Below are positions 2,876 through 55,956 of a DNA stretch of 64,000 nt, one piece after another. The translations under genes were made by a program, and so were the position numbers. Every line of letters begins with the position of its first letter. The stretch's first letter is position 1. The notes under the pieces are model-generated. The model saw only the letters and a list, made by a program, of their open reading frames with translations, was not told the DNA's origin and searched no databases. This stretch comes from Candidatus Aegiribacteria sp. MLS_C (GTDB lineage: Bacteria > Fermentibacterota > Fermentibacteria > Fermentibacterales > JCC-6), in assembly GCA_002030045.1 (NCBI GenBank), contig LQBI01000024.1, positions 202,848 to 266,847 of the forward strand, read 5' to 3'.

Positions 2876-2897
2876 TTCTCAGGGACATGACACAGCC

Positions 2898-2929: not shown

Positions 2930-3030
2930 CGGGCCTTCTCGTGCAGCGGCTGCAGGGAGTGTATTGACAGACGGCGGCCATCGAGTAGCTTCAGTCTGAT
3001 CACCGTCAAGAGCAATGAAGGGGGTGGAGA

Positions 3031-6587: not shown

Positions 6588-6591
6588 CCGA

Positions 6592-7793: not shown

Positions 7794-7820
7794 GCCGCAC
7801 TGTGCGGCTCTGTTCCGTAT
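7792..7820 (+). terminator. Possible terminator hairpin after yjbQ.
   Basis: GAGCCGCAC/GTGCGGCTC 9-bp inverted repeat overlapping the stop codon. The downstream T-run is weak (tgttccgtatgtagcgtttt). Confidence 0.3.
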
Positions 7821-7847
7821 GTAGCGTTTTCATGAAAGGACAGCGGC

Positions 7848-8570: not shown

Positions 8571-8571
8571 C

Positions 8572-15300: not shown

Positions 15301-15926
15301 CGGACGAGTTCCTGCAGTTCTGGCCCCAGGTAACCTGCCCCCTGCTCCAGCCGTCATCCTGGCCTGTGCTCAACAACACCACGCAGTCCGGAGAGGAATG
15401 GGCCGACATCATCATCATTCGTGACAGCCAGACGCAGTCAATAGACTACGTCCCCTACGACGACGACTGGGGCGCCTCCCAGGGCGCAAGCCTGGAGAGG
15501 ATCGACCCTGACCAGCCGGGGTTCCCGGAAACCAACTGGACGGGGTGTTCGACGACGGCCACCCCTGGAGAGACAAACAGCTGCTCTGGAGGAGGGGAAG
15601 GGCCGGGGAGGTATCTCCACTACTTCCCCGACCCCTTCTCCCCCGACGGCGACGGCATGGACGACGTTCTGACAATAGAGATGCACTTCGGCCATTCCGA
15701 GAACGAGGTGACCCTGGAGGTATACAACGTGCAGGGCAGGCTCATTCTCAGGCTCCTCGACCGTGAAACCTGCGGCCCCTCCAGGACCGTTTTCTGGGAC
15801 GGCACGGGAGAGGGCGGCTCCAGACTGCCCGTAGGAAGGTACATCATCTACCTCTCATCGAGAGCTGAAGACACCAGAGAATACCGCGAGGACTGCGGAG
15901 TTGTGGTCCTGGCCAGGCGCCTGTGA
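12306..15926 (+). CDS. Giant secreted protein (1206 aa) with four lamin-tail domains (LTD), three tandem repeat units of about 310 aa each, and a C-terminal FlgD-Ig-like / T9SS-type sorting domain.
   Basis: LTD motifs: VITEVASNPLIETSGEFIEIFNP, VVTEVMCNPLDEDRGEYIEIHFPGPG, VIITEVLCNPENEDTDEFVEVHYPGPG, VVVNEIMYAPAPGEPEWIEILNRSEVPVEITGW. Repeated ...STYGTPLLNDDPLxCDDDGLDGIPFDPGE blocks. C-terminal FSPDGDGMDD...TVFWDGTGEGG...RYIIYL. Confidence 0.7.
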   Translation: METILLILNVLLVRAPVITEVASNPLIETSGEFIEIFNPDINPVIIEGYSVTDGDALDFLIPWDESLHGTFPHAGMVLGTDTIPAEGFALLFELDYAGDGCYDIPPGTVILTTGDHALCNGLSASSDPVTLFDAGGTADSNAVSTYGTPVPSDIWEERDDDGLDGIPFDPGENITVERYPWSSPDTEGAWFAGPEGGTPGAHAQAPPDTLNISCDSLWTVPVDPLPGQPFEILARFTCWGNVSPSSGTITIFLDAEGDSIPDAGETLAQYPATSLQPGASMTFSAFTSLEQGWYLPSALSEVPEDEYPQDDFRSVPVAVGGGIDPVVTEVMCNPLDEDRGEYIEIHFPGPGIFPLCGCRFTDGDAVDIIVPWDQLPLTDPDAVYSEYLPGGFYGVVLDPEYVSGMQEYDLADSTYVFTVGNTTIGNGLTGNDPITLYDFEGTAQANVMSTYGTPLLNDDPLMCDDDGLDGIPFDPGEFHSVERKSHELPDEEYCWAVSPEGGTPGGPAVFFDTLDVSVDAILIEPDTLQPGQPVQISTVVRNTGTATAAGIELTVFLDSDADSLPQPNEILLSPVMDSLLPGLEDTISVTVTGPEEGYYLAAARVYLPGDSDPDNDFANRSFRTGDGVPVIITEVLCNPENEDTDEFVEVHYPGPGVFDVTGCSFTDGDALDWLQTWDQGLGTINDPEAVISPYLPAGTYAVILDSEYPQGTQPYDLPSGTRVLTTGNTTLGDGLTGTDPVTLYGHEGTSISSIMSTYGTPLLNDDPLLCDDDGLDGIPFDPGEGLSVHRIDPALPDAEENWFAPPTGPTPGGPPPFFQEGMNACGLLLDCFPPMGHGGKETDLMAEFVNTGTDTIPSGTMQVLFFADIDQSGTPAQGELIDSFLCGALAPGDSLVADCGWTAPEGTVELISVSACPGDSFPQDDTLRCTWNLAGPVVVNEIMYAPAPGEPEWIEILNRSEVPVEITGWTTEDSKDRVVFCQDSMVLQPDSFALIVPDPDEFLQFWPQVTCPLLQPSSWPVLNNTTQSGEEWADIIIIRDSQTQSIDYVPYDDDWGASQGASLERIDPDQPGFPETNWTGCSTTATPGETNSCSGGGEGPGRYLHYFPDPFSPDGDGMDDVLTIEMHFGHSENEVTLEVYNVQGRLILRLLDRETCGPSRTVFWDGTGEGGSRLPVGRYIIYLSSRAEDTREYREDCGVVVLARRL

Positions 15927-16215
15927 AATCCATCAAAGGATTCCCGAATACCGGAACGAAACTCCCCAATCGAAAAGGCTCCCATGGGCATCAATGATAA
16001 CCTGAACCCCTTGTTATGCTGCTGCGGCATAACATCGAGAATTCCGGTGTTAACAAGCACAAGTGTATTGCCCTTGAACGTGTTATCGATATTGACTCGC
16101 ATATATCAATGCTTTTATTCTCTGTCAGCATAACCGGGCAACGGTGTTAACTTAACACGCTGCCGCATAATCATTGTTATGAAGAACCAGTTTGATTCTA
16201 CCGGAAAGGACCATT

Positions 16216-17940
16216 ATGAAAAAACTCTACTATGGAGACAATCTGGATGTTCTCCGAAGAGAGATAGCTAGCAATTCTATTGATCTTATATACTTAGATC
16301 CACCTTTCAACTCTAAAAAATCCTACAATGTGTTATTCTCTGGACCTACCGGTGAAGCAAGAGCACAAATACAGGCGTTCGACGATACTTGGAAATGGAC
16401 GCCAGAGACCGAGAGTATCTACATAGACATGCAAAACGGAAGCGTACCAGCAAGGGTTGCAGATGCGGCTCAAGCATTTCGCTCATTACTTGGTGAAAAT
16501 GATGTTCTCGCATACTTAATAACAATGGCTCCAAGATTAGTTGAGCTGCATAGAGTACTAAAATCAGAAGGATCCCTCTTTCTACATTGTGATCCTGCAG
16601 CAAGCCACTATTTAAAAGTGCTACTGGATGCAGTATTTGGAGGGCGGCGATTCCGAAATGAAATCGTGTGGAAAAGAACTGGTGCCCATACAACCCCAAG
16701 AAGGTTCGAAACAATACATGATATATTGTTGTTTTATGCAAAGGGCGATAATGCATACTTTAATCCAATTAAAACACCTTACACTAAGGATCATGTTGAT
16801 TCAAGATATACCGAAGACGAAAAAGGTAGGCTGAAATTCGTTACAGGCGGGAACATCCTTTCAGGACCTGGTGCTACAAACGGCGACTCGGGCCAACCAT
16901 GGAAAGGTTTTGATCCATCAAGCAAGGGTCGGCACTGGGCAGTACCAGGTTATCTTGCAGAGCAGATGCCAGAGGGATTCTCTGAATTGTCGGTAAGAGA
17001 AAGACTGGATGCTCTCTATGATGCCGATCTAATTGAAATAAAGAAAGGAGCTGAATGGCCGCATCCGGTTAAATACCTTGCGGATGATGATGGTAAATTT
17101 CTATCAGATATCTGGGCATACCAACCAGGTACAGAAGGCGTACTATACGGTACAGACCAAGGAATTGACGCAGATGTGCAATGGATCGGTCCAACAGATC
17201 CAGAAGATCTTGGATATCAGACTCAGAAACCGGAAGGTCTCTTGGATAGGATTATTAGCTCAACATGCCCGCCTGAAGGGATTGTGCTTGATCCATTCTG
17301 TGGTTGTGGAACCACAATTGCTTCCGCACAAAGGCTTGGTCGGAATTGGATTGGGATTGATATCACCTACCTAGCTATTGATTTAATCGAGAAAAGACTC
17401 GTTGCCCAGTACGGTGATAACATATCCGATGAATACGAGATCTTTGGTATTCCGAGAGACATGGATGGAGCAATGACTCTCTTCAACTCAAATCCATTTG
17501 ACTTTGAGAGATGGGCAGTTTCTATTGTAAATGGCCAGCCTAATGAAAAGCAAGTCGGTGATAGAGGTATAGATGGGATCGTGAGATTCCCACTTGATGT
17601 TGCTGGACGAAAGAGCGCGAAAGCAATTGTCTCTGTCAAAGGCGGAAAGTCACTCAACCCAGGAATGGTTAGAGATCTAATGGGTACAGTAGATGCAACA
17701 CAACAAGCAGAGATAGGTATTCTAATCTGCTTAGAAAATCCCACAAAAGGTATGCTTGATGCTGCGGCAAGAGCTGGGGTCTACGAATGGCCCTTAACAA
17801 GAGAGCGTTATCCAAAGGCTCAAGTCATAACAATAGAAGAGTTACTAGATGGCAAAAGACCACATATGCCTCCAACATTGCTCCCATACATTAAGGCTCA
17901 GAAATTTGAAGATCCGAGTGGGCAGATGAAGTTGCTATAG
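16216..17940 (+). CDS. Beta-class N6-adenine/N4-cytosine DNA methyltransferase with a C-terminal Mrr-cat-like restriction-endonuclease-fold domain.
   Basis: Motif IV DPPF (LIYLDPPFNS) precedes motif I (VLDPFCGCGTT). C-terminal GDRGIDGIV...VSVKGGKS resembles an Mrr_cat D...(E/Q)xK core. Low GC. GAAAGGA RBS. Confidence 0.75.
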   Translation: MKKLYYGDNLDVLRREIASNSIDLIYLDPPFNSKKSYNVLFSGPTGEARAQIQAFDDTWKWTPETESIYIDMQNGSVPARVADAAQAFRSLLGENDVLAYLITMAPRLVELHRVLKSEGSLFLHCDPAASHYLKVLLDAVFGGRRFRNEIVWKRTGAHTTPRRFETIHDILLFYAKGDNAYFNPIKTPYTKDHVDSRYTEDEKGRLKFVTGGNILSGPGATNGDSGQPWKGFDPSSKGRHWAVPGYLAEQMPEGFSELSVRERLDALYDADLIEIKKGAEWPHPVKYLADDDGKFLSDIWAYQPGTEGVLYGTDQGIDADVQWIGPTDPEDLGYQTQKPEGLLDRIISSTCPPEGIVLDPFCGCGTTIASAQRLGRNWIGIDITYLAIDLIEKRLVAQYGDNISDEYEIFGIPRDMDGAMTLFNSNPFDFERWAVSIVNGQPNEKQVGDRGIDGIVRFPLDVAGRKSAKAIVSVKGGKSLNPGMVRDLMGTVDATQQAEIGILICLENPTKGMLDAAARAGVYEWPLTRERYPKAQVITIEELLDGKRPHMPPTLLPYIKAQKFEDPSGQMKLL

Positions 17941-17947
17941 GAATCAT

Positions 17948-18018
17948 AACCACAGCGTGAACCAGACGCCTGTAAGAGTTCGGGGTAAATGCTAACGGCG
18001 CTGGTTACGCTGATTGTT
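17948..18018. repeat. Family-1 attC-like imperfect palindromic element, copy 1, immediately 3' of the methyltransferase.
   Basis: AACCACAGCGTGAACCAGACGCC ... GGCGCTGGTTACGCTGATTGTT: the arms are reverse complements. Bounded by AAC...GTT. About 85% identical to copy 2. Confidence 0.6.
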
Positions 18019-18034
18019 ATCTAGAAAGAAGACC

Positions 18035-18940
18035 ATGAATCAACTGCCACAGATGCTTTGTCCCGAGTGCTTAAGACCCATGGAGAATAACGGAAGTACA
18101 GTAAAACCAACAGCAAAGTACAAAGACTGTATTCGAAAGTGTCAAGCCTGTGGTATTGGTTACTCGAATTCAGTAGCAAAACCTTCACTGATTTTCGAAG
18201 ATCCTAGAAAGAACATTCCTGGTTTTGTGGACAGCTCAGATTTTCTCAAAATCCTGGAGAAATCCAATAACCGAAGGAATATCAGTAACAAGAAGTGCAA
18301 AGCGGGATTCTCAACATCAGAGGACGCAGTTACTTATACCTTCGTTAAATCCTTTTCTCAAGCTGATTCAATCGAGCGAATGATGAAAGTACTCGGACTT
18401 GAGATGAACAGCAACCATGTTGATTTGTTTCTATGGGGATGTCCTATTTCAAAAGGCACGGACATTACATTGATTAATAGGATGAATTCTTTGCTAAGTA
18501 ATGAGTTTGCGGAGAGGGCAAATTCTCTCACAGAGCCAGACATTATTCTGAGCGTTGAGGGCTACGGTATTGTCATTATTGAAGTGAAGTTGCACAGTTC
18601 TAACGAAGTTAAAGCAACTGAAAAGTTAAGCAATTATCTGGATCGCAGCTTCTATACTAATGTAGCAAAGGCAAAGTCCTCTCAGCATTATGAGCTAGTT
18701 AGAAACTGGTCAATTGGTAACGCCTTATCCGAGGGTTGCAACTTCACACTTATCAATTTAGGCAAAGAATCATTGTTTACAGACCGAAATGCATCAAAGC
18801 TACAGCTGTTTAAGGAATCACTAAACTGTAATAAGAGGCGCCAGTTTGCTCAGGTATCCTGGGAAGAAATTCTGAACAGATTAGAAGAGAGGGATTCTCA
18901 GTTAAAAGAATATCTGAAGAGGAAAACAAAGTATAGATAA
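18035..18940 (+). CDS. Putative restriction endonuclease: N-terminal Zn-ribbon plus a PD-(D/E)xK nuclease core.
   Basis: CPEC...CQAC ribbon. EPDIILSVEGYGIVIIEVK reads as PD-x13-EVK. Adjacent to the methyltransferase. Low GC. Confidence 0.55.
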   Translation: MNQLPQMLCPECLRPMENNGSTVKPTAKYKDCIRKCQACGIGYSNSVAKPSLIFEDPRKNIPGFVDSSDFLKILEKSNNRRNISNKKCKAGFSTSEDAVTYTFVKSFSQADSIERMMKVLGLEMNSNHVDLFLWGCPISKGTDITLINRMNSLLSNEFAERANSLTEPDIILSVEGYGIVIIEVKLHSSNEVKATEKLSNYLDRSFYTNVAKAKSSQHYELVRNWSIGNALSEGCNFTLINLGKESLFTDRNASKLQLFKESLNCNKRRQFAQVSWEEILNRLEERDSQLKEYLKRKTKYR

Positions 18941-19007
18941 CCACAGCATGAACCAGAAGCCTGCAAGGAAATGGGTAAGGTTAACGGCTCTGGTTACGCT
19001 GATTGTT
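18939..19007. repeat. Family-1 attC-like element, copy 2, immediately 3' of the endonuclease gene, overlapping its stop codon.
   Basis: AACCACAGCATGAACCAGAAGCC ... GGCTCTGGTTACGCTGATTGTT. Shares an 18-nt exact match (CTGGTTACGCTGATTGTT) with copy 1. Confidence 0.6.
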
Positions 19008-19050
19008 GTGCGTATAAATGCTATAGACACTTAACGCTAGTGGAGGAAGA

Positions 19051-19812
19051 ATGTCAGATGAAATGAAGGGGAAAGTGGCGCTGATTACCGGTGGTAGTTC
19101 TGGAATCGGTAAAGCAGCTGCCTTTGCGTTTGCCAACGAGGGAGCACAGGTAGTAATCGCCAGCAGATCAGAGGATACTGGAGAGAAAGCTGCCAGCGAT
19201 ATAAGACAATCCGGTGGAAATGCGAAATGGATTAGGGCAGACGTAACGCAGGAAGACCAAGTTAAGACATTGGTAACACTGATATTAGAGGAGTATGGCA
19301 GGCTTGATTATGCCTTCAATAACGCAGGATCAGGTGGAAAAGGCGGTTGGACTACTGAGATAGAGGAAGAGGACTGGGATAAGACAATATCAGGCTTTCT
19401 GAAGAGTGTATGGCTGTGCATGAAACACGAACTACCAGCAATGCTTGATAACGGACAAGGTTCGATAGTGAATAATTCATCTGTAGACGGTAAACGAGGT
19501 TTCCGTTGGGACCCCGTTTACTCAGCTGCGAAGCATGGAGTGATTGGGTTAACAAAATCATCTGCATTGCAGTATGCCCAGCAAGGAATCCGTATTAACG
19601 CAATCTGCCCTGGATGGATAATAACCCCTCCAGTTGAGAAGATACTAGAGCATAATCCCGAAGCAGGGAATGGTATGCTTCTTCACCAGCCAATTGGAAG
19701 ATTCGGTAAACCTGAGGAAGTAGCTCAGGCAGTTGTCTGGCTGTGTTCAGACAAGTCATCATTGATTACAGGCACAGTGCTTCCAATTGATGGAGGCTAT
19801 CTAGCGATATAA
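19051..19812 (+). CDS. SDR family oxidoreductase (3-oxoacyl-ACP reductase-like).
   Basis: TGGSSGIGKA (Rossmann motif), NNAG, YSAAK (YxxxK). GGAGGA RBS. Confidence 0.85.
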   Translation: MSDEMKGKVALITGGSSGIGKAAAFAFANEGAQVVIASRSEDTGEKAASDIRQSGGNAKWIRADVTQEDQVKTLVTLILEEYGRLDYAFNNAGSGGKGGWTTEIEEEDWDKTISGFLKSVWLCMKHELPAMLDNGQGSIVNNSSVDGKRGFRWDPVYSAAKHGVIGLTKSSALQYAQQGIRINAICPGWIITPPVEKILEHNPEAGNGMLLHQPIGRFGKPEEVAQAVVWLCSDKSSLITGTVLPIDGGYLAI

Positions 19813-19821
19813 ACCGCACGG

Positions 19822-19897
19822 CAACAGAATGCAGCAGAACAGCGTTTGGGAGTTTAACCTGGGTTTTTGCAGTCTGCTGATTCAGAGCGTTCAATAG
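19822..19897. repeat. Family-2 attC-like structured repeat, copy A, 3' of the SDR gene.
   Basis: ...AATGCAGCAGAACAGCG...(loop)...TTTTTGCAGTCTGCTGATT..GAGCGTTCAAT, with imperfect inverted arms CAGCAGAAC.GC / GCAGTCTGCTG. Confidence 0.55.
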
Positions 19898-20293
19898 AAA
19901 AGATAGAAGTCATATCAAACCGGACAGAGATTATCAAGGTAGATAATCATCATTTTAATGATGATATTACAGTCGGTCTTTTCGACAATTTGCAATCCTT
20001 AAGCGAATCTCCGAAAATCAGGTATTCTAATGCTTTGCTGATGCATCAAAAGCAGACTAACCAATTCCGACTAATTGGGTACATTGTCCGAATATAGAAA
20101 TAATAAAATAATTCACACACTCATGTAACTTGTTATTAAATTTTTAAAAGGTTATCATTGTAGTATGTGTGAAGAGTTAATTCTTTCACTGTGAAATCAA
20201 TCTGGGCTATGAAACAAGTCTAACTAACATCGTGTTACATCCTGTCAATAAGTTTACTTCTTTCGAGCTTATGATATTCGGAAGGAGAAAGTC

Positions 20294-22147
20294 ATGTGTT
20301 CACGGGTTATTTTCCTTGCTACTTATCTGGTTATGTTCGCGCCCTTTGAAGTTTACGCAGGTACCGCAACCCAGACTGACTGGTCCGGCGGTGACGGAAT
20401 CTTCGGACCGGTTATAGACTGGGGCAATGAGTTCTATTCTGATACAGACATTGAATGCTACAACAGTCCTTTCAATATTGTTCTCCAGAAAACAATGGCT
20501 CTGACTCCTCTGGAACATACCGTTTGCGGGGATTTCGTTATGCCTGCGGGAGTGTACTCTGCTGATGTCAACGGAGACGGCTATATGGATGTTCTCGGAG
20601 TATCCGTTGCTGCTAGTAATATTACCTGGTGGGAGAATCTGGATAGCTCGGGCACAAGCTGGGCTGAACACATTGTTGATGGAGATTTCGATGGTGCCCG
20701 ATCAGTGTATTCCGCTGATGTCAACGGAGACGGCTATATGGACGTCCTCGGAGCAGGCTGGACAGCCAACGACATCACCTGGTGGGAGAGTATTGACGGC
20801 TCGGGAACAAGCTGGACGGAACACATCGTAGATGGGGAATTCCATACCGCCGCCTCAGTGTATTCCGCTGATGTCAACGGAGACGGTTACATGGATGTCC
20901 TTGGAGCATCTTACAATGGCTCTTTGATCTCTTGGTGGGAGAATCTGGACGGTTCGGGTACCAGTTGGACGGAACATATTGTTGATGGGGCTATCAACAG
21001 TGCTATTTCAGTATGTGCTGCAGATGTCAACGGAGACGGCTACATGGATGTTCTCGGAGTTTCTCAAAATTCATCCTATGTTGCCTGGTGGGAGAATGTG
21101 GACGGCTCGGGCACAAGCTGGGCTGAACATACAGTTGACGCGTCTTTCGGGGGTGCCTATTGGGTATCCTTCGCGGATGTCAACGGGGACAGTTACATGG
21201 ATGTTCTGGGAGCTGCCGCTGATGATGACGAAATCACCTGGTGGGAGAACGTTGACGGCTCGGGCACAAGCTGGATGGAACATATCGTAGATGATAATTT
21301 TGATTATGCCTCATCAGTATACTCCGTGGATGTCAACAGAGACGGCTACATGGATGTCCTGGGCTCAGCTCAATATGCCAACGACATCACCTGGTGGGAG
21401 AACACTGACGGCTCGGGCACTAGCTGGACGGAACATACCGTAGATGGTGACTTCGGTGGTCCTTTCTCAGTGTTTTCCGCTGATATCAACGGAGACGGCT
21501 GGCTGGATGTCCTCGGAGCTGCATATCTTGATAACGACATAACCTGGTGGGATCTGACCGAATATCTCCCTGATGGTTCGCTTGAATCCAGCGTGCTAAA
21601 TGTACAGGAAAGCCCAGACTGGCAGACAATTGACTGGACCTGTACCGAGCCTGCCGGGACAAGTGTTGCTGTGCAGGTGAGGGCTTCGAACAATTCTTCC
21701 AGCATGGGAGCCTGGTCGGATACACTTACAGCTCCCTGTACCCTGGAAGGAATCCTGTCCGACGAAGACAACTATTTCCAGTACAGACTCATACTGAGCA
21801 CCACCGATTCGTTTCTTTCTCCCGTGCTTCACGATGTAGCTGTAGGCTGGGAGCCGTTCACCGGAACGCATGAAGGATCCCGGGTAGAGGTTTCCACATA
21901 CTCTCTATACGGCGCGCAGCCAAATCCGGCACTGGGTCATGCAACGCTGGTCTTTTCGCTGCCTGTTGATTCAAAAGCTGAACTGACAGTATACGACCTG
22001 ACCGGGCGAGTGGTTTACTCCATTAATGGTGTGTACAGTACAGGCGTGCACGAGGTGATACTCGAAGGTCTTGCAAGTGGTGTGTACATGGCCCTTATGA
22101 CCTCGGAAGAATTTGTGGCAACGCTCCAATTCGTTGTGATCGATTAG
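20294..22147 (+). CDS. Secreted FG-GAP/VCBS-repeat (beta-propeller) protein with a T9SS type-A C-terminal sorting domain.
   Basis: Signal peptide. Eight or more tandem repeats of about 60 aa (VYSADVNGDGYMDVLG...ITWWEN.DGSGTSWTEH.VD) carrying a DxNxDGxxD Ca-binding loop. C-terminal QPNPALGHATLVFSLP...LTVYDLTGRVV...SGVYMAL. Confidence 0.75.
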   Translation: MCSRVIFLATYLVMFAPFEVYAGTATQTDWSGGDGIFGPVIDWGNEFYSDTDIECYNSPFNIVLQKTMALTPLEHTVCGDFVMPAGVYSADVNGDGYMDVLGVSVAASNITWWENLDSSGTSWAEHIVDGDFDGARSVYSADVNGDGYMDVLGAGWTANDITWWESIDGSGTSWTEHIVDGEFHTAASVYSADVNGDGYMDVLGASYNGSLISWWENLDGSGTSWTEHIVDGAINSAISVCAADVNGDGYMDVLGVSQNSSYVAWWENVDGSGTSWAEHTVDASFGGAYWVSFADVNGDSYMDVLGAAADDDEITWWENVDGSGTSWMEHIVDDNFDYASSVYSVDVNRDGYMDVLGSAQYANDITWWENTDGSGTSWTEHTVDGDFGGPFSVFSADINGDGWLDVLGAAYLDNDITWWDLTEYLPDGSLESSVLNVQESPDWQTIDWTCTEPAGTSVAVQVRASNNSSSMGAWSDTLTAPCTLEGILSDEDNYFQYRLILSTTDSFLSPVLHDVAVGWEPFTGTHEGSRVEVSTYSLYGAQPNPALGHATLVFSLPVDSKAELTVYDLTGRVVYSINGVYSTGVHEVILEGLASGVYMALMTSEEFVATLQFVVID

Positions 22148-22295
22148 CACCGGCGATCCCGTAGAGTTCAACGAGCTTCACACTCTTCTGGCCTCAACTG
22201 CCAACTGGGAAAGCTTGTTAGCATTTTAAACGCAATGAAGTGAAGCTATAGAACATTTGCAGTATGCACATCTGGAGTATTACTTTGCGGATAAA

Positions 22296-22377
22296 ATTGA
22301 ACAAGCAAATGCAGCAGAACTGCGTCAGAACTATTGAAACTCAGGTTTTTGCAGTCTGCTGATTTAAGCGTTCAGTC
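22296..22377. repeat. Family-2 structured repeat, copy B, about 150 nt 3' of the FG-GAP gene.
   Basis: ATTGAAC-AAGCAA-ATGCAGCAGAACTGCG...GGTTTTTGCAGTCTGCTGATT-TAAGC-GTTCAGT. The R''-L''...L'-R' style layout has AAC/GTT boundaries. Confidence 0.55.
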
Positions 22378-22510
22378 GACCGCAGTCGGAAAAGAAATAA
22401 ACGGAAAATGAATATGAAAACGCTGCAGGAAAAGATAAACAAGTATGCGGAAAGCGGTCGACTGAATGGGCCGCGTATTACCACACGCTAGTTCATCCGC
22501 CTGCGGCGTC

Positions 22511-22551
22511 TGAACAAGCGTATGCAGCAGTCATTGAATCCGAACAAAATG
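22511..22551. repeat. Degenerate partial copy of the family-2 repeat (5' arm only).
   Basis: TGAACAAGCGTATGCAGCAGTCATTGAATCCGAACAAAATG resembles the 5' halves of copies B and C. Confidence 0.35.
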
Positions 22552-22647
22552 AAAGCAAGGCTTATACCTCCGCCGCCGGGAAACTCATCCCGGCTCAATT
22601 GCTGATCTTTTGCTTGTGGATCCATGTTTTTCTAGTCGTTGAATGAT

Positions 22648-23007
22648 CTAGGCTTTCTCGTTCTTTTCGTAGTGAACCCGTGCGTCTCGCAGAAGATGTA
22701 CACAATGGGTATTAAGGCTTTCTCCATGGCGCAGGGCGTCTATGGTAAGTTCTTTGTGTAGATCCTTGCCGACTCGAAGAACAAACTTGCCCGAGTAATC
22801 TTTGCCAGCGGTTTCAGCAGGAAGGGTTGCACCGTCTTGCCCGTATATCTCGATCCACTCTTCTACTACCTGGCAGAGTTCGCGATATACCTTAGCTTCA
22901 TCGTCTCCATGAACACCTCCAAGCATAAGCCCGGGACATGTGCCGATGTAGCAATGATCTTCTTCCGACCACTCGACAATCTTGAGATATCGGTCACTCG
23001 TTTTCAT
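22648..23007 (-). CDS. hicB: HicB family antitoxin.
   Basis: 119 aa. HicB-like fold features (YIGTCPGLMLGGVHGDDEAKVYRE). Overlaps hicA by 4 nt. Confidence 0.6.
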   Translation of the reverse strand: MKTSDRYLKIVEWSEEDHCYIGTCPGLMLGGVHGDDEAKVYRELCQVVEEWIEIYGQDGATLPAETAGKDYSGKFVLRVGKDLHKELTIDALRHGESLNTHCVHLLRDARVHYEKNEKA

Positions 23008-23198
23008 TCCATCACCTCGCGGATTGCTTTCTCTACCTCGCGCTCCTGATACTTCTTTGCGTCCTGCGAAAGGTAACCGCTTATTGTTATCTTCGCTCCC
23101 TTGGGGTGAGTGAAGTTTCGATGGCTACCTTTTCCGCCGCGGTTTATAAAACCCGCATTCTTCAGGTCGCGAATCAACTCTCTTACTTTCCTCGGCAT
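23004..23198 (-). CDS. hicA: HicA family mRNA-interferase toxin.
   Basis: MPRKVRELIRDLKNAGFINRGGKGSHRNFTHPKGAKITISG is the canonical HicA/YcfA sequence. Confidence 0.75.
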   Translation of the reverse strand: MPRKVRELIRDLKNAGFINRGGKGSHRNFTHPKGAKITISGYLSQDAKKYQEREVEKAIREVME

Positions 23199-23454
23199 AT
23201 CTATATAGTACTACAATGATACTACAAATGTCAATGGATCAGCCTAAGACAGAGCTGTATTCAGCAATCATCAGATCCTTTGGCAATACAACCCCTGCGA
23301 AGATTACAGGCATAAACGAGTATACCGAACAGAACCGAACATACCGAACCAATCCAAGCATATCCGCCCGCGAAAGTGTTCATCCAGAGATATTGTGTAT
23401 TGAAATCGGGCTGATTATCATCAATCCAACTGGCTGGGAGTATAACCAGATCCC

Positions 23455-23537
23455 GAACACAACAACAAAATGCAGTAGAACTGCGCAGCGGTGCCTGAAG
23501 GTTATGCTTTTGCAGTCTACTGATTTTGAGTGTTAAA
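23455..23537. repeat. Family-2 structured repeat, copy C, upstream of hicA on the opposite strand.
   Basis: AAAATGCAGTAGAACTGCG...GCTTTTGCAGTCTACTGATTTTGAGTGTTAAAA. Confidence 0.5.
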
Positions 23538-23630
23538 AAGCCAAGTAATTTGCCAATCATTGTAGGGGCTATTTTGTTCCTGATTGGTTTTATTATCGTA
23601 TTACTAAACTATATCGTAGGAGGGTAACAA

Positions 23631-23903
23631 ATGGAATCGATACAAGAGGTGCATCTGTTCATTGAAGGTGGTGGAGATCAGAGACTTGTTAATGAGATTA
23701 TTCAAGCACTACACCCTGAATTTCTTAGGATACCTGGCCTGAGAATACACAAGCATGATGTTGCAAATTGGCCAGAGGAGCCTTTTGTCTATGCAGCAAT
23801 CAGTTTGAAGACACAACACGGAATCAAGTTGACGACATCCAATTGCCTCACACAAGATGGATCAGCGTACGGAAAGAAATTGTACCTGATTATGGTCAGA
23901 TAG
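23631..23903 (+). CDS. Hypothetical small protein.
   Basis: GGAGGG RBS 7 nt upstream. 90 aa. Low GC. Confidence 0.35.
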   Translation: MESIQEVHLFIEGGGDQRLVNEIIQALHPEFLRIPGLRIHKHDVANWPEEPFVYAAISLKTQHGIKLTTSNCLTQDGSAYGKKLYLIMVR

Positions 23904-24028
23904 TAGGTTGCCATAACCAGGGACAACCCTGCCTTACACTCGGTCGGGAACTCCGCTGCGCTCCTTTCCCGCCGGTGAAGGCAACATTAAGTAGAAGAAT
24001 ATGGATGAAGGAACAAAATACAGAGTGA

Positions 24029-24433
24029 TTACTCAAGGTTTGGCACAAAGTCACAGAGATATGTGACCAGAATCGGGAAGAGGTCTTCATGACGATGATT
24101 ATACCTGAACTCCTGTTCCTTCAGGTAGAGCGGGAAATTTTTGTGTGAGACACCATGATGCTTTATAAGACGCTCCTTGGCAAAACTCCAGAACCCTTCG
24201 AGACCGTTGATGTAGACACGCCCCCGGGAGAACTCCTTTCCGTGGTCAACCTTGAGATGCCTGTAACCGCAGAACATCAGGCTGTCATATATCTGGAAGC
24301 GATCGTTGTATACAATGCTTCCCCGGCGGACCTTCTTCAAAGTCAGACCGAGCACGGTCTCGGCCCTGACAGCAGGCTCCGTTCTGCTCACAGTCCTCGC
24401 GGAATTCGTATTCGAACTGTTCCAGAGCATCAT
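24029..24433 (-). pseudogene. IS1595-family (ISXO2-like DDE) transposase, C-terminal fragment only. N-terminally truncated or decayed.
   Basis: GSIVYNDRFQIYDSL..YRHLKVDHGKEF..VYINGLEGFWSFAKERL matches the DDE_Tnp_IS1595 C-terminal half. An in-frame stop lies 5 codons upstream of the first Met. GC composition shifts to host-like immediately 5' of it. Confidence 0.6.
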
Positions 24434-24949
24434 CGTTGGAATCGTGGCTTATCCTGCCGAAACCCAGTGCACCCTCTGCTAACACGACGAAGTCTTCGCC
24501 CCAGTGGTGGAGTATGGGAACTGTCCGGAGGTGCTTGGGCGCCTCCGGTCTCCACCTCACCTGCTGAAGACAGGACTATCGCAGATGATAGAAGAAGAAC
24601 AACAACCGGTCGCTTCATTTCCATTGAGGACTCCTCGACGGTCGACCGTCATGCTGACAGATGCTGACCTCCCCTTTGGGAATGGCCCGTTCAGGCTTCC
24701 CCGATCCGCAATCCGGAATTTATTGAGCACCCGCGGGATTGCCATCTTTCCCGGCGACTCAGCTCCTTTGCCGAATGATAACCGAGCGGTTTCGACCGGT
24801 CAGAGAGAAGTGGACCGTCAAGGCGCACACAGTGATCCTGCCGCATCGCGCCGGAGGCCGGTGAGGTATGTGCGGTTATCGTATTGTCCGGGGCTTCTGC
24901 CACCGCCCCGACCGGATGCACCCGCAGGACGGATTCCGGGAAATACCCG

Positions 24950-25951
24950 TTAGAAACTGCTCAGGGCTATGCTGAGCCAGAGGGGCAGCGTCAGGAGGGC
25001 TGCGAGGTGGACCGCCAGCTGCAGCCCTGAGACCAGTTTCCACCTGCCTCCGTACCTTCTCGCGACAAGCGCGTGGTTCGTGGCGGGAGGAGCCGCGGCG
25101 ACCAGTACCAGGATCGTGGCAGCAAGCGGTTCTACCGGAAGGTTCCTCAGCACCGCATACACCGCCAGGGGGACCGCGATGAGCCTTATCAGGACAAGTG
25201 GTACCGTGTACCTGGAGGGTATCCCGCGAATGCTCCCGGCTCCAGCGATCATGCCGCCCAGTATGATCATTGCCATGGGCGAGAGCATTCGGCTCACGAA
25301 CTCCAGTACGGACATGATCGTCTCAACGGGAGCCATGCCTCCCTGGATCCCCCTCGCCGATTCACGCACCCCCGGTATGAAACTGATGAGGATACCAGCG
25401 AAGAACGAGACTATGGGGGGATTGAATATCCGTTTCAGCCTCTCTGCCGCGGTCAGGTCGGCTGACCTTCCGAGCAGCTTCACACCCGCGGTCCACATTA
25501 TCGCGATGGACGGTAGTGAGACCATTGAGATGTACATGACGGCCTGATCGTGCATGTGCCCTGGAGTCACGGCCAGGATGACGGGCAGCGGTAGATAGAG
25601 ACTGTTGGATATCATCATCATGGCCACCACCGACCGGTCGGCCTGCGGGTCTCCTCCGGGCAGGATCCTGTAGAGCATCGTCCCCGCCGCCCAGGAGAGG
25701 ACTATCCAGGCGGTGGAGAAGAGAACGAGCACGAGCCCCTCCTCCAGTATCTCCAGTGAGAAGGATCGGGCCATGGCCAGCACGAAGGTGCAGGGGATCA
25801 CCACGTCGATCAGGAACCTCACCAGATCCGAGAGGGTGTCTTCACGGATCCATTTCCGCCGGACCATCAGGAACCCCAGCAGCACCAGGAGCGCCATCTG
25901 CCCTATCACGTCGATTGATGTGTACAGACCCTGAAGGAATGATTCCGACAT
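24950..25951 (-). CDS. AEC (auxin efflux carrier / malate permease-like) family transporter.
   Basis: About 10 TM helices, two-repeat topology. Host-like codon usage. Confidence 0.6.
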   Translation of the reverse strand: MSESFLQGLYTSIDVIGQMALLVLLGFLMVRRKWIREDTLSDLVRFLIDVVIPCTFVLAMARSFSLEILEEGLVLVLFSTAWIVLSWAAGTMLYRILPGGDPQADRSVVAMMMISNSLYLPLPVILAVTPGHMHDQAVMYISMVSLPSIAIMWTAGVKLLGRSADLTAAERLKRIFNPPIVSFFAGILISFIPGVRESARGIQGGMAPVETIMSVLEFVSRMLSPMAMIILGGMIAGAGSIRGIPSRYTVPLVLIRLIAVPLAVYAVLRNLPVEPLAATILVLVAAAPPATNHALVARRYGGRWKLVSGLQLAVHLAALLTLPLWLSIALSSF

Positions 25952-26479
25952 CTTACACCCGTTCAGCTTTGTTCATTTGGCCTGAACTCTCCCTGTAAGG
26001 AACTCCGGGTTTCTCGCCGGGATACCGGTGGATCCGACATTGCCCTCCTCCAGGACGCCGTTCCATACGCGATCCGGCAATGACCGGCTGATGGCATCAC
26101 CACCTCGGCCGCACTGAAGAGAAATGCCTTCGGAAGCGACGCTGGTCCTGAGGACCAGTGCATACTAACAGGGTAGCGGCGTCAAGACCAGCGGCGACCT
26201 GACCTGTTGAGCCGTGACCTTCCAGGCTCCTTCCTGTTCGAAGTAATCTGGATAGCCTAATCAAGGGGTTGGATTCCGGGAATTCTAATTGTCGCCAAGC
26301 GGGAGTATTAAGTGTCGCTGATCACTTGTCATCCAGCAAAGGGCCAGCATATATCTGGAAGAAGGTGTTAAGGACCAGGTAGCGCTAACGACTGGACTAA
26401 CCTGATACAGCCGCTCCGGGACGGGTCTCGGTAATGCCTGTGCAGGTTATTCGGAGCGTCAGGCGGATTGAGAAGAAGA

Positions 26480-28312: not shown

Positions 28313-29455
28313 CCGTGTGTCTGTTGAACAATGATTCAGAAGGACCGCCCGATAGCAGCATGAAGCGGACGGCGCCAGGCGCCGCCGCTGATGCTGAGCG
28401 TTGACGAGATGGAAACGGCGGGTCAGGTCCGAATCAGTGTGAGATTCATGAGCCTTTTCCGGAACGGGATCGGGGACATCCTCGGATGATGTCTTCGATT
28501 CCATCCAGTCCCAGTACTCCTCCATATCGAAGTATTCTCTGCCTTCCGTCCAAGCAACGTCCTGTTCGACCAGCAGCGCTCCGATAAACCCGAACGCCGA
28601 TGCCTGATTGGGAAAAATCCTGATTGCTCTCTCCCTCCTGCGGATCTCCTGGTTCAATCTCTCAATTGAATTAGTCGTTCTGAGTCTCTTGCGGTACTTC
28701 TCCGGAAGAGCCATGACCGCAGGAGCATCATCAAGGCGCTCTTCGAGTTTCGATACAGCCTTCGGCGCTGTTATTCCAAACCTGTCGAAAACATCACCGG
28801 CAAGCTCCCTGGCCGTCTCCTCGTCCGGAGCATCGAAGACAGGGCGTATCCTGTTCTTGAGCTCCTTCTTACGACGCTTGGGCGCGCTGTCCAGAATGTT
28901 CTTCATCAGGTGTGTCTGACAAGCCGCCAGCTGCTTCCGGGCAGCTGACTCCTTATGGCTTTTACAAGGCCTGCGTGGTTGTCTGACACAACAGGGTCCG
29001 CTCCGCTGAGACTTCTGCCGACAAGCCACCTCAGGAACTCCTCCCAGGATACCTCGCTCTTCGGGAACTCCATCCCCCGCATCTCCTCAACGACCTCCTC
29101 ACCCTGAGGGTGCTTACCCCGTTGATCACCATCTCGATAATGGCCAGCAGGAAGGCCTGCTCGCTGCGCTGAAGCCTGCAGAACGTCTCCGTATCGAACT
29201 GGCCGTCACGAAGCCGTGGCACCTGCAGCTCCAGCCTGCCGAACCCGGTCTTGATAAACCTCGACCGGTAACCACTCCTGTAGGCCGTTAGGCTCTCAGA
29301 ACGCTTGTGCTTCACAGCCCCGACCTGTTAAGCCGCCTGCTGGTCAAGGACCTGATTGGCCACCTTCTCCATCAGCCGGCCGACTCCTTCGTCGGAACTG
29401 AACAGGCCTTGCACATCTTCCGAATCAAGTGTAATGTTGTATTGGGTCATCGGAC
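28307..29455 (-). mobile_element. IS256-family transposase gene, disrupted into three frames (frameshifted or pseudogenised).
   Basis: N-terminal MTQYNITLDSEDVQGLFS, middle YRSGYRSRFIKTGFGRLELQVPRLRDGQF...GVSTLRV, and C-terminal TNSIERLNQEIRRRERAIRIFPN. The pieces are ORFs 29328..29576, 29031..29315 and 28307..29029. Confidence 0.7.
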
Positions 29456-29799
29456 ATCCCTTCCTAGTTGGTAGAACAAAGTAGGAGCAATAAGGGATTA
29501 GGGTGACCCATTCCTCCTTCCTGGGCAACCCCGGGGAAAGTGCACACCATATCGGATACAACCTTGGCGGCATCATTCTTCATGATTTTCAATGCATTGT
29601 TCTCAAAACAATGAAGGGGTCTGACAACCGCATCGACTCGGACAGGCAATTCCGCTGCGCTCCATTTCCAGACGGTTATGCGAAGCGTTGTCTTCAGAAA
29701 GGAATACTAGCATATAGCGTTATGCGTTATCGCACGTACTCATGATACGCAGCTTCAAGTGCCGGGAAACCGAACAACTATTCAATCGGGAAAGACCTG

Positions 29800-55942: not shown

Positions 55943-55956
55943 GGATCCTCCTTCCT

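Follow-up and report, generated by a model that had tools for sequence, protein, structure and literature searches.

Composition and cassette genes

The DNA analyzed (the window) is a 64-kb stretch of Candidatus Aegiribacteria sp. MLS_C (Fermentibacterota). It gives a 100% match to AVO35_04680 of MLS_C, located on a scaffold of 335,466 bp, and both sample and GC are consistent with PMC4846661. Beyond an LTD/T9SS gene, it carries plus-strand palindromes interspersed with genes for a DNA methyltransferase, a nuclease-like protein, a short-chain dehydrogenase (SDR), a secreted FG-GAP protein and HicAB, followed by remnants of two insertion sequences, two transporter genes and a truncated higB-like gene (Table 1). 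Everything listed in a preliminary description of the locus (methyltransferase, nuclease-like, SDR, FG-GAP, hicAB and truncated IS1595 transposase genes) is present.

In 1-kb bins, GC content is 0.57-0.63 up to 16.0 kb, 0.40-0.52 at 16-24 kb and 0.55-0.60 thereafter. The drop begins directly past the LTD stop codon (15926) and host GC is regained at ~24.2 kb, in agreement with the earlier claim of a fall between 15926 and ~24.4 kb: from ~0.60, GC decreases to 0.40-0.52 over 15.93-24.2 kb. Tetranucleotide composition, suggested there as a check, also gives a foreign signal at 16-24 kb, where the correlation with the rest of the window is -0.21 to 0.26 compared with ~0.9 for host DNA. In host genes, 51% of Arg codons are AGG and 12% are AGA (GC3 0.75), while the corresponding values for the island genes are 20% and 40% (GC3 0.44). 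Hence, the reported lack of the host AGG/AGA bias applies to AGG, whereas AGA rises.

Table 1. Features of the MLS_C element in window coordinates (a slash within a sequence marks the crossover point)
Feature	Position	Strand	Evidence or remark
Low-GC spacer, LTD/T9SS gene stop to attI	15927-16025	+	GC fall; without IntI similarity on either strand
attI region	16026-16178	+	Homologous to intI-proximal regions of integrase-bearing relatives
Distal IntI-site-like repeat GGCATAACATCGAG	16026-16039	+	Within attI region
Promoter-like TTGACT-18-TATTCT, cassette-facing	16092-16121	+	Promoter scan
Proximal repeat TAACACGCTGCC	16153-16164	+	Within attI region
attI core GCATAATCATTG/TT	16165-16178	+	Within attI region
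Cassette 1: N6/N4 DNA methyltransferase with C-terminal Mrr/NA-iREase1-like domain, attC E1	16177-18016 (ORF 16216-17940)	+	Pfam PF01555 1.5e-39; PADLOC MTase_II 1.8e-50
attC E1, family A	17946-18020	+	30.6 bits R1 (not trained on E1), 58 bits R2
Cassette 2: Zn-ribbon and PD-ExK nuclease-like protein, attC E2	18017-19005 (ORF 18035-18940)	+	Pfam REase-ARP 26.7 bits (cut-off 27); HSDR_N also weak
attC E2, family A	18937-19009	+	41 bits, E=8.6e-9, R2 (not trained on E2)
Cassette 3: short-chain dehydrogenase, attC E3	19006-19889 (ORF 19051-19812)	+	Pfam adh_short_C2 5e-66
attC E3, family B	19821-19893	+	66-70 bits
Cassette 4: AT-rich leader, secreted FG-GAP protein, attC E4	19890-22370 (ORF 20294-22147)	+	Pfam FG-GAP_3 1.6e-53, Por_Secre_tail; NCBIfam TIGR04183
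attC E4, family B	22298-22374	+	79-87 bits
Cassette 5: hicB/hicA, E5 and E6	22371-23532	+ (genes -)	
Decayed attC E5, family B, without GTT	22507-22620	+	12 bits, E=1.5
hicB	22648-23007	-	Pfam HicB
hicA	23004-23198	-	Pfam HicA
hicBA promoter-like site TTGACA-18-TACTAT	23234-23205	-	10/12
attC E6, family B	23459-23536	+	79-81 bits
Cassette 6, truncated: 90-aa ORF, hairpin E7	23533-24024 (ORF 23631-23903)	+	
Hairpin E7: R''-like GGACAAC, three bulges, without R' GTT	~23919-23990		Fold z=-3.15; not detected by R2
IS1595-family transposase remnant, C-terminal half only	24025-24433 (ORF 24029-24433)	-	PF12762 positions 47-153 of 153; NF033547 positions 108-215 of 215
Host-like-composition segment inside element	24434-26380	-	AGG 50% of Arg codons; tetranucleotide r 0.88
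Signal-peptide gene, 5' fragment	24430-24624	-	
Auxin-efflux-carrier-type transporter	24950-25951	-	Pfam Mem_trans
Decayed attC	26381-26466	+	R2 16.9 bits, E=0.07 in 64 kb
DASS/CitMHS-TrkA_C anion transporter	26468-28312	+	TIGR00785 1.4e-41
GC-rich family-A-like attC	28345-28408	+	R2 28.8 bits, E=2.9e-5 in 64 kb; fold z=-4.7
IS256-family transposase fragments, frameshifted	28565-29073	-	NF033543 2.4e-30, positions 213-337 of 338; JGI Transposase_mut
Last attC, R'' GACAAC, R' GTTGTC, G29687/T29688	29617-29695	+	R2 17 bits, E=0.07 in 64 kb
Truncated last cassette: leader and first 18 codons of higB-like toxin gene (ATG 29742)	29688-29796	+	

The cassette 2 protein shows a Zn-ribbon and an EPD...EVK motif, and the stop codon of its ORF overlaps R'' of E2. 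Window positions 18016-19007 are 87.7% identical to positions 2746-3741 of array L211, with homology that starts and ends at the G/TT crossovers. In L211, the array context is different and the nuclease gene is not beside a DNA methylase gene. The occurrence of an exactly G/TT-bounded cassette in another array shows cassette mobility, while its occurrence without an adjacent methylase undermines the "RM system" of the preliminary description; the methylase gene lies in one cassette and the nuclease-like gene in another. The cassette 4 protein carries seven FG-GAP repeats (seen as 153-nt repeats in the DNA) and a T9SS sorting tail, and its leader has a GC content of ~0.31. Cassette 5 probably represents two fused cassettes. 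Profile searches with the 90-aa ORF of cassette 6 gave no family matches.

attC sites, attI region and missing integrase

The attC bottom strand folds into a hairpin in which an AAC/GTT R box is followed by an unpaired spacer, by an L stem from which two bases bulge out, and by a variable loop. The integron integrase recognizes the shape of this hairpin and cuts between G and TT of R'. Recombination between attC sites excises cassettes as circles, and insertion occurs at attI. In the window, the bottom strands of E1-E4 and E6 fold into an R box, an internal loop and three helices of 4-6, 6-7 and 4-5 bp, separated by bulges and closed by a loop, with AAC/GTT R boxes and two bulged bases.

Two covariance models, R1 and R2, were built for this analysis from sites in relatives. 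With R2, E1-E4 and E6 score 41-79 bits, and R1, trained only on family B, detects the family-A sites E1 (E=4e-5) and E2 (E=1e-3). All matches with E<0.1 in the 64 kb are on the plus strand at 17.9-29.7 kb, except for weaker signals on the reverse strand at E4 and E6 (E=0.005 and 0.03). Across 29 attC sites, with the alignment (A4) fitted to the model, 91.6% of cells are paired relative to at most 41% in slid controls; compensatory changes occur at 13 of 20 pairs and AAC/GTT is near-invariant. As a positive control, R2 was run on a clinical class 1 integron: its six attCs were all recovered, on the cassette strand, and no other match reached E<1. Among the 80 integrase-bearing loci listed, 18 of 22 R2 matches have the classical position, on the upstream side of intI and in divergent orientation. 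Arrays of family-B attCs occur in Fermentibacterota metagenome-assembled genomes (MAGs), and one of these arrays, L102, adjoins an IntI gene whose partial product scores 256 bits on TIGR02249 (331 bits for the L009 IntI; cut-off 265). Collectively, these data identify E1-E4 and E6 as genuine integron attC sites.

E5 and E7 fall below the model threshold and are decayed. The proposal that an attC-like element follows every plus-strand ORF consequently holds for four of the five ORFs (E1-E4), the 90-aa ORF being followed only by the decayed E7. E6 is a fifth model-supported site, closing the hicBA cassette. At least three attC families are mixed in the array: A, B and the type represented by E7 and the site at 29617, which have the loop motif TCCGCTGCGCTCC in common. 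Like class 1 attCs (59-base elements), the MLS_C sites have the order R''-L''-loop-L'-R' with AAC/GTT, are matched by the same covariance model, and carry two bulges on the R''/L'' arm with 6-7 bp between them, the distal one a T on the bottom strand. They differ in the proximal bottom-strand bulge (C or A instead of G), in the helix from spacer to first bulge (4-6 bp instead of 3 bp) and in having no link to transposon or resistance genes.

The leftmost "palindrome" (16130-16180), previously counted as attC-like, corresponds instead to the attI core together with an IntI-site-like repeat. When the attI region is aligned with the intI-proximal regions of six loci that carry an integrase, the order of elements is identical, with TTGAC and AATCATTGTT invariant. 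The best window match of an nhmmer profile of these six regions is 16153-16186 on the plus strand, marginal by itself (E=0.074; 128 kb searched). The crossover point would lie between G16176 and T16177. The core, AATCATTG/TT, is presumably unrelated to attI1. As the preliminary description had it, no integrase is visible: in tblastn searches of the 64 kb with IntI1 and two Fermentibacterota-type IntI proteins, nothing was found below E=1. In relatives, ~55-215 nt separate the IntI start codon from the attI elements; the place to expect intI and its promoter region would thus be 15927-16025, where we presume an end point of the deletion.

Right-hand part of the element

The MLS_C element is longer than first described. 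Rather than ending at 24.45 kb, it continues through the IS1595 remnant, with host-like GC to its right, as far as the truncated higB cassette at ~29796. The remnant is a repeat in the sample, and other assemblies break there: JGI contig 102 ends at window position 24120 and contig 52 begins at 24307, while a Logan contig ends at 24054. The join at 24121-24306, within the IS repeat, is missing from the JGI assembly, and hence the contiguity of the two attC clusters rests on one assembly and on plausibility.

The segment at 24.4-26.4 kb may be a cassette or translocated host DNA; host-like codons and minus-strand genes are unusual for cassettes. The three weak right-hand sites have E ~0.07 or miss the canonical AAC or GTT. 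The attC at 26381 retains the helix AACCTG/CAGGTT and two bulges, has GTC in place of GTT as R', and matches attCs in three Fermentibacterota arrays (L052, L038 and L022) along its 3' arm. The site at 28345 (CAGCAT-G-AAGCGG-A-CGGCGCC...) has R' GTT at 28400-28402 and a decayed R'', and matches the L009 attC that adjoins an IntI gene. Between these two attC-like sites lies the DASS transporter gene, the codons of which are foreign despite its host-like GC (AGG 3%, CGC 33%, tetranucleotide r 0.55); it is a probable cassette gene. The attC at 29617 shares 91% identity over 66 nt with an attC of L196 that lies ~700 nt upstream of an IntI gene, in divergent orientation. Homology of the higB fragment to L211 (positions 2029-2141; 85% identity) extends from the R' GTT to ~29796, and the element ends 4 nt from the stop codon of a host epimerase gene (29800-30762, minus strand).

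Identity and origin of the array

We consider it probable that ~15.93-29.80 kb constitutes a decayed sedentary chromosomal integron of MLS_C that has kept attI, a promoter-like site and attC-closed cassettes, and from which intI was deleted. Since the 64-kb window contains neither intI nor a remnant of it, the array is formally a CALIN, i.e., a cluster of attC sites lacking an integron-integrase as defined for IntegronFinder (Cury et al. 2016, PMC4889954). The first of the three readings offered initially, a CALIN-type cassette array, is in this respect borne out by the attC, attI and cassette evidence; the other two, an integrative-element remnant and another cassette-capture system, gained no support. 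In common with CALIN, the array has two or more attC sites on the same strand with less than 4 kb between them, no intI nearby, mostly unknown or non-resistance cargo, and IS elements in or near it. It differs in keeping a recognizable attI and a cassette-facing promoter-like site at its head, which makes it an integron platform minus intI and not a free-standing attC cluster. Nearby intI pseudogenes are lacking in 95% of CALIN (PMC4889954). The retained attI and promoter-like site suggest a particular origin, in which intI was lost in place; most CALIN bear no such trace.

Could the low-GC block be an assembly or binning chimera, in which an Aegiribacteria contig was fused with DNA from an organism of lower GC? 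The abrupt compositional change at 15.93 kb, related cassette sequences from Fermentibacterota of 40-46% GC, and a right join at 24.1-24.3 kb in an IS repeat broken in the JGI and Logan assemblies would be compatible with this. However, the 81-kb JGI contig MLSed_10000102 independently joins the island, up to 24120, to the LTD gene and other host genes as in the NCBI MLS_C scaffold, attC clusters of the same orientation flank the IS join, and a truncated cassette at the right end lies 4 nt from a host gene. Moreover, it is usual for integrons to carry low-GC cassette arrays in a host of higher GC. A chimera is accordingly very unlikely. We assign a still lower probability to a genomic island with some attC-bearing cargo that arrived by another route than integron recombination, as an integrative element, a transposon or an IS1595/IS256 composite. 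Two IS remnants are present and the low-GC part lies between the arms of a 16/17 inverted match (15879-15895 and 24391-24407), but ~0.1 such matches are expected by chance (an estimate), and these arms lie inside the LTD gene and IS1595-homologous coding sequence, respectively. The truncated IS fragments aside, genes for an integrase, a transposase or conjugation are absent; no tRNA was found in the window and no direct repeats flank the island, whose left end is attI and right end a cut cassette. Least credible of all, to the point of being negligible, is that the palindromes are REP/BIME-like repeats or terminators of an acquired island unrelated to integrons. They are imperfect and located after ORFs, with modest fold z-scores for several (-1.1 to -2), and a simple terminator scan overlaps some of them. 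Yet they lack a T-run, all lie on the same strand, have invariant AAC/GTT ends with bulged bases on one arm only, and are restricted to this locus within the 64 kb. In addition, R2 also detects clinical attCs and sites correctly placed relative to IntI in many loci, and cassette homology ends at G/TT.

The array might instead be a detached part of a complete integron, with a working intI and attI elsewhere in MLS_C, an IS-mediated split and shuffling in trans. This route is named among the origins of CALIN in PMC4889954. It is in keeping with the IS1595 and IS256 fragments within the array, with five well-preserved attCs, and with an intact IntI in a relative, L126 (~76% nucleotide identity), beside genes syntenic with window 54.1-58.4 kb. 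On the other hand, the array has an attI of its own immediately upstream of the first cassette, as expected if intI was lost in place rather than if a distal part was split off. The 120 best IntI homologues, which extend to ~40% identity, include none labeled MLS_C, although this bin is reported to be 98% complete; the two closest candidates examined derive from other samples, and no MLSed contig is among the best 80 IntI loci listed. We therefore regard a detached part as unlikely.

If intI was deleted while attI, the promoter-like site and the attC array remained, the array would be frozen unless IntI comes in trans, which would account for the presence of well-kept attCs next to decayed sites, IS fragments and truncated ends. 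Transcription of the plus-strand cassettes might start from the promoter-like site embedded in attI or result from read-through from the LTD gene. By analogy with other integrons, hicAB with its own promoter-like site probably stabilizes the array. The low-GC cassettes would have been taken from the cassette pool of lower-GC Fermentibacterota.

Integrons that have lost their integrase are well known as a kind of element, and the present one would belong to a phylum that has been little studied; decayed integrons with a lost or inactivated intI are common in Xanthomonas. With sedentary chromosomal integrons (the Vibrio cholerae superintegron, Xanthomonas), the MLS_C array shares its chromosomal location, cassette GC below host GC, lineage-typical attC families (family B occurs across Fermentibacterota MAGs) and toxin-antitoxin cassettes (here hicAB and the higB fragment), some reversed with their own promoter. 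Those integrons, in contrast, hold tens to hundreds of cassettes (~6-10 in MLS_C) and one homogeneous attC family (at least three in MLS_C). In MLS_C, the integrase is wholly absent and not pseudogenized.

Composition and attC sites

Foreign composition begins abruptly after the LTD gene. In 1-kb bins the GC content is 0.57-0.63 up to 16.0 kb, 0.40-0.52 at 16-24 kb, and 0.55-0.60 beyond, and 200-nt bins place the start of the drop directly 3′ of the stop codon of the LTD/CHU_C protein (1206 aa; 15926), where the preliminary description had put it, and the return to host values at ~24.2 kb. Tetranucleotide usage, which that description had proposed as a check, correlates with that of the remaining window at -0.21 to 0.26 for 16-24 kb vs. 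~0.9 elsewhere, with 0.55 at 26-28 kb and 0.74 at 28-30 kb. Host genes use AGG for 51% of their Arg codons (GC3 0.75), and island genes use it for 20% (GC3 0.44). Hence, the reported loss of the host AGG/AGA bias stands for AGG and not for AGA, which makes up 40% of the Arg codons in the island genes. The compositional break is real and sharp. An inverted 16/17 match (15879-15895 and 24391-24407) brackets the low-GC part, its left arm falling in the terminal LTD codons and its right arm inside IS1595-homologous sequence. It was discarded as an island boundary, as about 0.1 such matches are expected by chance (an estimate), and it is probably a coincidence.

The five palindromes E1-E4 and E6 (see table) are integron attC sites. 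In their shared bottom-strand fold, an R box closed by AAC/GTT leads into a small, asymmetric internal loop and then into successive helices of 4-6, 6-7, and 4-5 bp, which are set apart by two bulges and capped by a loop of variable sequence and length; the total length is 73-78 nt. Both bulges are single bases, 6-7 bp apart, and both lie on the 3′ arm once the bottom strand is folded; extrahelical bases confined to the R''-L'' arm set the strand choice of attC. Families A (E1 and E2) and B (E3, E4, and E6) differ in sequence and have the same geometry. The AAC...GTT R''/R' boxes are also present in the site at 29617 and are absent in canonical form from those at 26381 (GTC) and 28345 (R'' lost) and from the hairpins E5 and E7. 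The earlier statement that every + strand ORF is followed by an attC-like element thus applies to E1-E4, each at the 3′ end of its ORF and oriented like it, with R'' placed from an overlap with the stop codon (E2) to 151 nt past it (E4), and fails for E7, which is decayed and falls outside the models.

Two covariance models were built. The first, R1, was trained on family B only (three window sites and eight from Fermentibacterota MAGs) and recovers the family-A sites at full length, E1 with 30.6 bits (E=4e-5) and E2 with 24.7 bits (E=1e-3); the broader model, R2, scores E1-E4 and E6 at 41-79 bits. In an alignment of 29 sites gathered with R1, the three R-box pairs A-U, A-U, and C-G occur in 25-28 of 28 distinct sites, and 11 of 15 L-stem pairs covary. 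The alignment has 91.6% of its cells paired, compared with at most 41% in slid-partner controls, and compensatory changes in 13 of 20 pairs, the AAC/GTT pairs being near-invariant; this alignment was fitted to the model and is therefore biased towards it, but the slid controls and the double-change count are still far apart. Fold energy alone discriminates poorly (z of -1.1 to -2 for several good attC sites).

Features of the element and its attI region
Feature	Position	Strand	Description
Distal repeat			GGCATAACATCGAG in the window; GGCATAACACGACTC in L206
TTGAC element	16092-16121 (TTGACT-18-TATTCT)		Invariant among relatives; part of TTGACT-18-TATTCT, facing the cassettes
Proximal repeat			TAAC.CG...C; precedes the attI core
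attI core	16165-16178	+	GCATAATCATTG/TT; 14/14 nt identical to L206
E1	17946-18020	+	Family A attC; R'' 6 nt past stop codon
E2	18937-19009	+	Family A attC; R'' overlaps stop codon
E3	19821-19893	+	Family B attC; R'' 9 nt past stop codon
E4	22298-22374	+	Family B attC; R'' 151 nt past stop codon
E5	22507-22620		Decayed site; rejected by models
E6	23459-23536	+	Family B attC
E7	~23919-23990		Decayed site; rejected by models
IS1595 remnant	24025-24433		Inside element
2-kb segment	24.4-26.4 kb		Minus-strand genes with host-like codon usage; inside element
attC-like	26381-26466	+	R2 16.9 bits, E=0.07; R' = GTC
attC-like	28345-28408	+	R2 28.8 bits, E=3e-5; family-A-like CAGCAT-G-AAGCGG-A-CGGCGCC; R'' decayed
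IS256 fragments	28.57-29.07 kb		Inside element
attC	29617-29695	+	R2 17 bits, E=0.07; R'' GACAAC, R' GTTGTC

The sites are tied to integrons by several controls. In a clinical class 1 integron (estX-psp-aadA2-cmlA1-aadA1-qacL), R2 finds 6/6 attC sites, all on the strand of the cassettes, with E-values of 2.5e-6 to 7e-3; the 2/2 attC sites found in a second class 1 integron score more weakly, and neither integron gives another match at E<1. Class 1 and window attC sites agree in the distal bulge, a bottom-strand T, and in the 6-bp spacing, whereas the proximal bulge is G in the former and C or A in the latter. Moreover, family-B arrays are present in MAGs of Ca. Sabulitectum, Ca. Aegiribacteria, and Ca. 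Fermentibacteria. In a Fermentibacteraceae BB12 locus (L102), three family-B attC sites follow a divergently transcribed integron integrase, and in L009 there are two; the L009 IntI scores 331 bits with TIGR02249 (cut-off 265), and the L102 copy, clipped by the locus edge, 256 bits. Among the best 80 metagenomic IntI loci listed, picked solely for encoding a relative of that IntI, 18 of the 22 R2 matches have the classical layout, being upstream of intI and on the strand opposite to it. E1 and E2 match an attC adjoining the IntI of L129, and E6 is 94% identical to an attC of L127. A 16-mer scan of genome contigs (596 Gb) returned mostly chance matches, as expected, and the Fermentibacterota loci alone were informative. 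Recombination of E1-E4 and E6 by an integron integrase, as folded single-stranded DNA, is predicted, and the position relative to IntI of those 18 of 22 matches is indirect evidence for it.

The divergent layout is found in most loci of this IntI clade. In L127 (12-3290) and L213 (3325-6982), the attC sites lie 3′ of the end of intI and in the same orientation as intI. Such an "inverted" layout is that of Treponema-type integrons.

The attI region and the missing integrase gene

That no integrase is visible in the window was confirmed with three queries: tblastn with IntI1 (a query sequence confirmed as 100% correct) and with the L102 and L009 IntI proteins gave nothing below E=1 in the 64 kb. 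In addition, the minus-strand translation of 15800-16110 contains no IntI N-terminus, and the window has no tRNA gene. A candidate N-terminal remnant on the minus strand (15928-15991; MPMGAFSIGEFRSG...DGF) was rejected, having only a loose [LI]xxFxxx[LI] pattern.

The ~150 nt preceding cassette 1, the DNA methylase cassette, align with the intI-proximal regions of six relatives (L206, L207, L126, L102, L128, and L129), with the same order of elements. The hairpin at 16130-16180, at first taken as a short attC and named E0, fails both R1 and R2 and aligns with the attI cores of the relatives, and it was therefore re-assigned as attI. An nhmmer profile of the six relatives, with the window left out, has its best window match on the + strand at the expected place (16153-16186), with an E-value (0.074; 128 kb searched) that is marginal alone. 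The attI alignment, together with the lack of any IntI match, makes the element an integron platform without intI. TTGACT-18-TATTCT is a 9/12 promoter match and a candidate cassette promoter (Pc); promoter-like sites overall are not enriched in the region.

In L206, L207, L126, L128, and L129, the palindrome GTATACAWWTGTATAC is conserved in the stretch that separates the intI start from the TTGAC element, and it may serve as a LexA-like repressor box for the control of intI; a weak, degenerate copy is left in the window at ~16050-16075. The IntI proteins of the clade are 394-414 aa long (L126 175-1419, L206 756-1940, L207 270-1502, and L009 5983-7227) and carry an N-terminal extension of ~95 aa that is absent from IntI1, with the conserved motifs VPFF..WV..YL and GK..WQIRQALDAVKLY ahead of the SAM-like domain. 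A second attI-core-like string (GAATCATTGTTCAAC / AATCATTGTT; nhmmer E=1.1) lies on the minus strand at 28317-28341, between the stop codon of a transporter gene and the attC-like site at 28345.

Cassette genes and the right-hand part

The gene content is as first described, except that the "endonuclease" amounts to a sub-threshold Pfam match with a Zn-ribbon and a PD...ExK motif in the translation. The methylase identification of cassette 1 is solid by family searches. The nuclease-like protein of cassette 2 has no match in PADLOC, NCBIfam, or the PDB sequences, and is 100% identical to AVO35_04680 (Candidatus Aegiribacteria sp. MLS_C). At the nucleotide level, 18016-19007 is 87.7% identical over 997 nt to positions 2746-3741 of L211, a locus from an unrelated sequencing run, where the unit stands in a six-attC array between higBA-like and small-molecule methyltransferase cassettes. 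The homology spans from the G/TT of E1 to the R' of E2, so that both ends coincide with crossover points. This bounded homology is direct evidence that the cassettes here are mobile units.

A type II RM system would need a DNA methyltransferase and a cognate restriction endonuclease that work together as a unit; of the proposed pair the methylase is there, and its pairing with a cognate nuclease is unproven. In the window, the methylase and nuclease-like genes are separate cassettes with a full attC between them; the two are followed by sister attC sites whose arms are ~90% identical. Elsewhere, in L211/L212 and L213, the nuclease-like gene forms a cassette by itself and no DNA methylase adjoins it, which weakens the RM reading; a classical restriction enzyme would hardly occur as a lone cassette without a DNA methylase. 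The hicAB genes (PF07927 2.7e-10 and PF05534 1.8e-10) overlap by 4 nt, with a promoter-like site upstream, and as adjacent small HicA toxin and HicB antitoxin genes they constitute a HicAB toxin-antitoxin pair. The FG-GAP cassette protein is made up of six to seven tandem 153-nt (51-aa) repeats (20463-21518) that are 63-75% identical, and its terminal T9SS sorting domain has a counterpart at the end of the host LTD protein, whose gene directly precedes the element.

The end originally placed at ~24.4 kb did not hold, since attC sites and a cut higB cassette reach ~29796. The three right-hand sites are embedded in DNA of host-like GC, and each resembles attC sites of integrase-linked or Fermentibacterota arrays; the one at 29617 is 91% identical to the attC adjoining the IntI of L196. 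Between the first two lies a DASS/CitMHS-TrkA_C transporter gene (26468-28312) with AGG at 3% of Arg codons (host 51%), CGC at 33%, a host-like GC3 of 0.74, and a tetranucleotide r of 0.55. By these values it resembles a gene acquired from a different donor of high GC, which a GC plot would miss. From the R' GTT of the last site onward, 29684-29796 shares 85% identity with the beginning of the L211 higB-like toxin cassette, and the homology ends 4 nt short of the host epimerase stop codon. These limits place the right end of the element at a truncated cassette at ~29796. On the minus strand, a 64-codon ORF with a clear signal peptide (MKRPVVVLLLSSAIVLSSAG...; 24430-24624) runs into the IS1595 remnant; it probably represents the 5′ part of a gene for a secreted protein that the IS has interrupted.

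Nature of the array and its alternatives

By the definition of PMC4889954, a CALIN has two or more attC sites that share a strand and are spaced by less than 4 kb, and it lacks a neighboring intI. Here, five strong and three weaker sites lie on the + strand, with a largest gap of 2.8 kb (23536-26381) and no IntI in the 64 kb. The suggestion of a CALIN-type array was therefore right, though incomplete, given the attI and the extension to 29.8 kb. As to a complete integron, no intI, the gene of a tyrosine recombinase with an extra IntI-specific domain, lies beside attI, and an attI is found at the head of the array by the alignment of core, repeat, and TTGAC element, with the profile match of E=0.074. 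We consider it probable that the element is an integron that lost its intI in place; the end point of the deletion must then fall between the LTD stop at 15926 and ~16025.

The array might instead be a detached part of a complete integron residing elsewhere, which we judge unlikely. In L126 (LQAJ01000031.1), a relative at ~76% nucleotide identity, 4175-8811 is syntenic with window 54067-58362 (73-77% nucleotide identity), and the contig has an intact IntI 3 kb left of the syntenic block, where the window has unrelated genes. Several of the best 120 homologues of the L126 IntI are labeled Ca. Aegiribacteria sp., Sabulitectum, or Fermentibacteria, and none of these 120 is labeled MLS_C; no MLSed contig is among the best 80 metagenome IntI loci listed, and the two closest IntI candidates looked up came from other samples. 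These searches suggest that MLS_C is without any intI. An assembly chimera is improbable. The encoded proteins were found in IMG 3300001533 and SRR2989655, from the Mahoney Lake sediment sample, the source of the MLS_C bin (GC 59.6%; PMC4846661). JGI contig 102 covers host genes, the LTD gene, and the island as far as window position 24120, JGI contig 52 begins at 24307, and a Logan contig ends at 24054; hence, the left junction is seen in two assemblies (JGI contig 102 and the window) and the join across the IS1595 remnant in one only, while none of the Logan contigs spans the left junction. The join across the remnant is plausible, with attC clusters of the same orientation on both sides.

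A non-integron island is very improbable. REP-like repeats or terminators are extremely improbable: REP/BIME elements are expected as many copies scattered over the intergenic regions of a genome, on both strands, whereas in the 64 kb the arm patterns, R1, and R2 match only 17.9-29.7 kb on the + strand, save for weaker reverse-strand echoes of E4 and E6, and the arm sequences of E1-E4 and E6 have no further copies elsewhere.

For an integron that lost its intI in place, a mechanism can be proposed from established integron biology (definitions in PMC4889954). IntI would recognize the folded bottom strand of attC, excise cassettes by attC x attC recombination, and insert them at attI, cutting between G and TT. 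With the DNA sites present (five of them intact) and the enzyme gene missing, the array would be fixed unless IntI is supplied in trans. A frozen array would fit the mix of intact and decayed sites, the IS fragments, and the cut ends. The + strand cassettes may be expressed from the promoter-like site embedded in attI or by read-through from the LTD gene, and hicAB from its own promoter-like site.

A broader reading, which we regard as unlikely, joins a phylum-wide Fermentibacterota integron system, an MLS_C array active in trans, and a methylase/nuclease lock. The traits of the system would be the IntI extension of ~95 aa, the conserved attI core AATCATTG/TT, the likewise conserved GTATACAWWTGTATAC palindrome between intI and attI, and intI/cassette layouts that are both divergent and co-directional. 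The intI-less MLS_C array would still be an active reservoir whose cassettes are swapped in trans with co-resident relatives, and such exchange would have left the near-identical copy of the nuclease cassette seen in an unrelated sample. The methylase and nuclease cassettes, with their sister attC sites, would act together as a modular defense/addiction pair of two cassettes that locks the head of the array.

NCBI-annotated integron integrases are already known in this phylum, and intI-less arrays are a described class; the general understanding of integrons is unchanged. A documented integron platform (attI and array, no integrase) is now placed in Candidatus Aegiribacteria/Fermentibacterota, a metagenome-only phylum, with a cassette cargo of T9SS-secreted proteins, transporters, toxin-antitoxin pairs, and DNA-modification genes, and with a clean case of one cassette in two arrays bounded exactly at crossover points. 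The attC families of the lineage and the candidate attI core can be used for finding arrays and for repairing assemblies broken at them.

Assembly breaks fall at integron sites. The L126 contig ends exactly inside the attI core (position 1), and two long contigs, of 139 kb and 163 kb, begin less than 300 nt from IntI (L207, 270). In the window's own sample, Logan contigs begin or end at attI (16150), E5 (22505), and the IS1595 remnant (24054).
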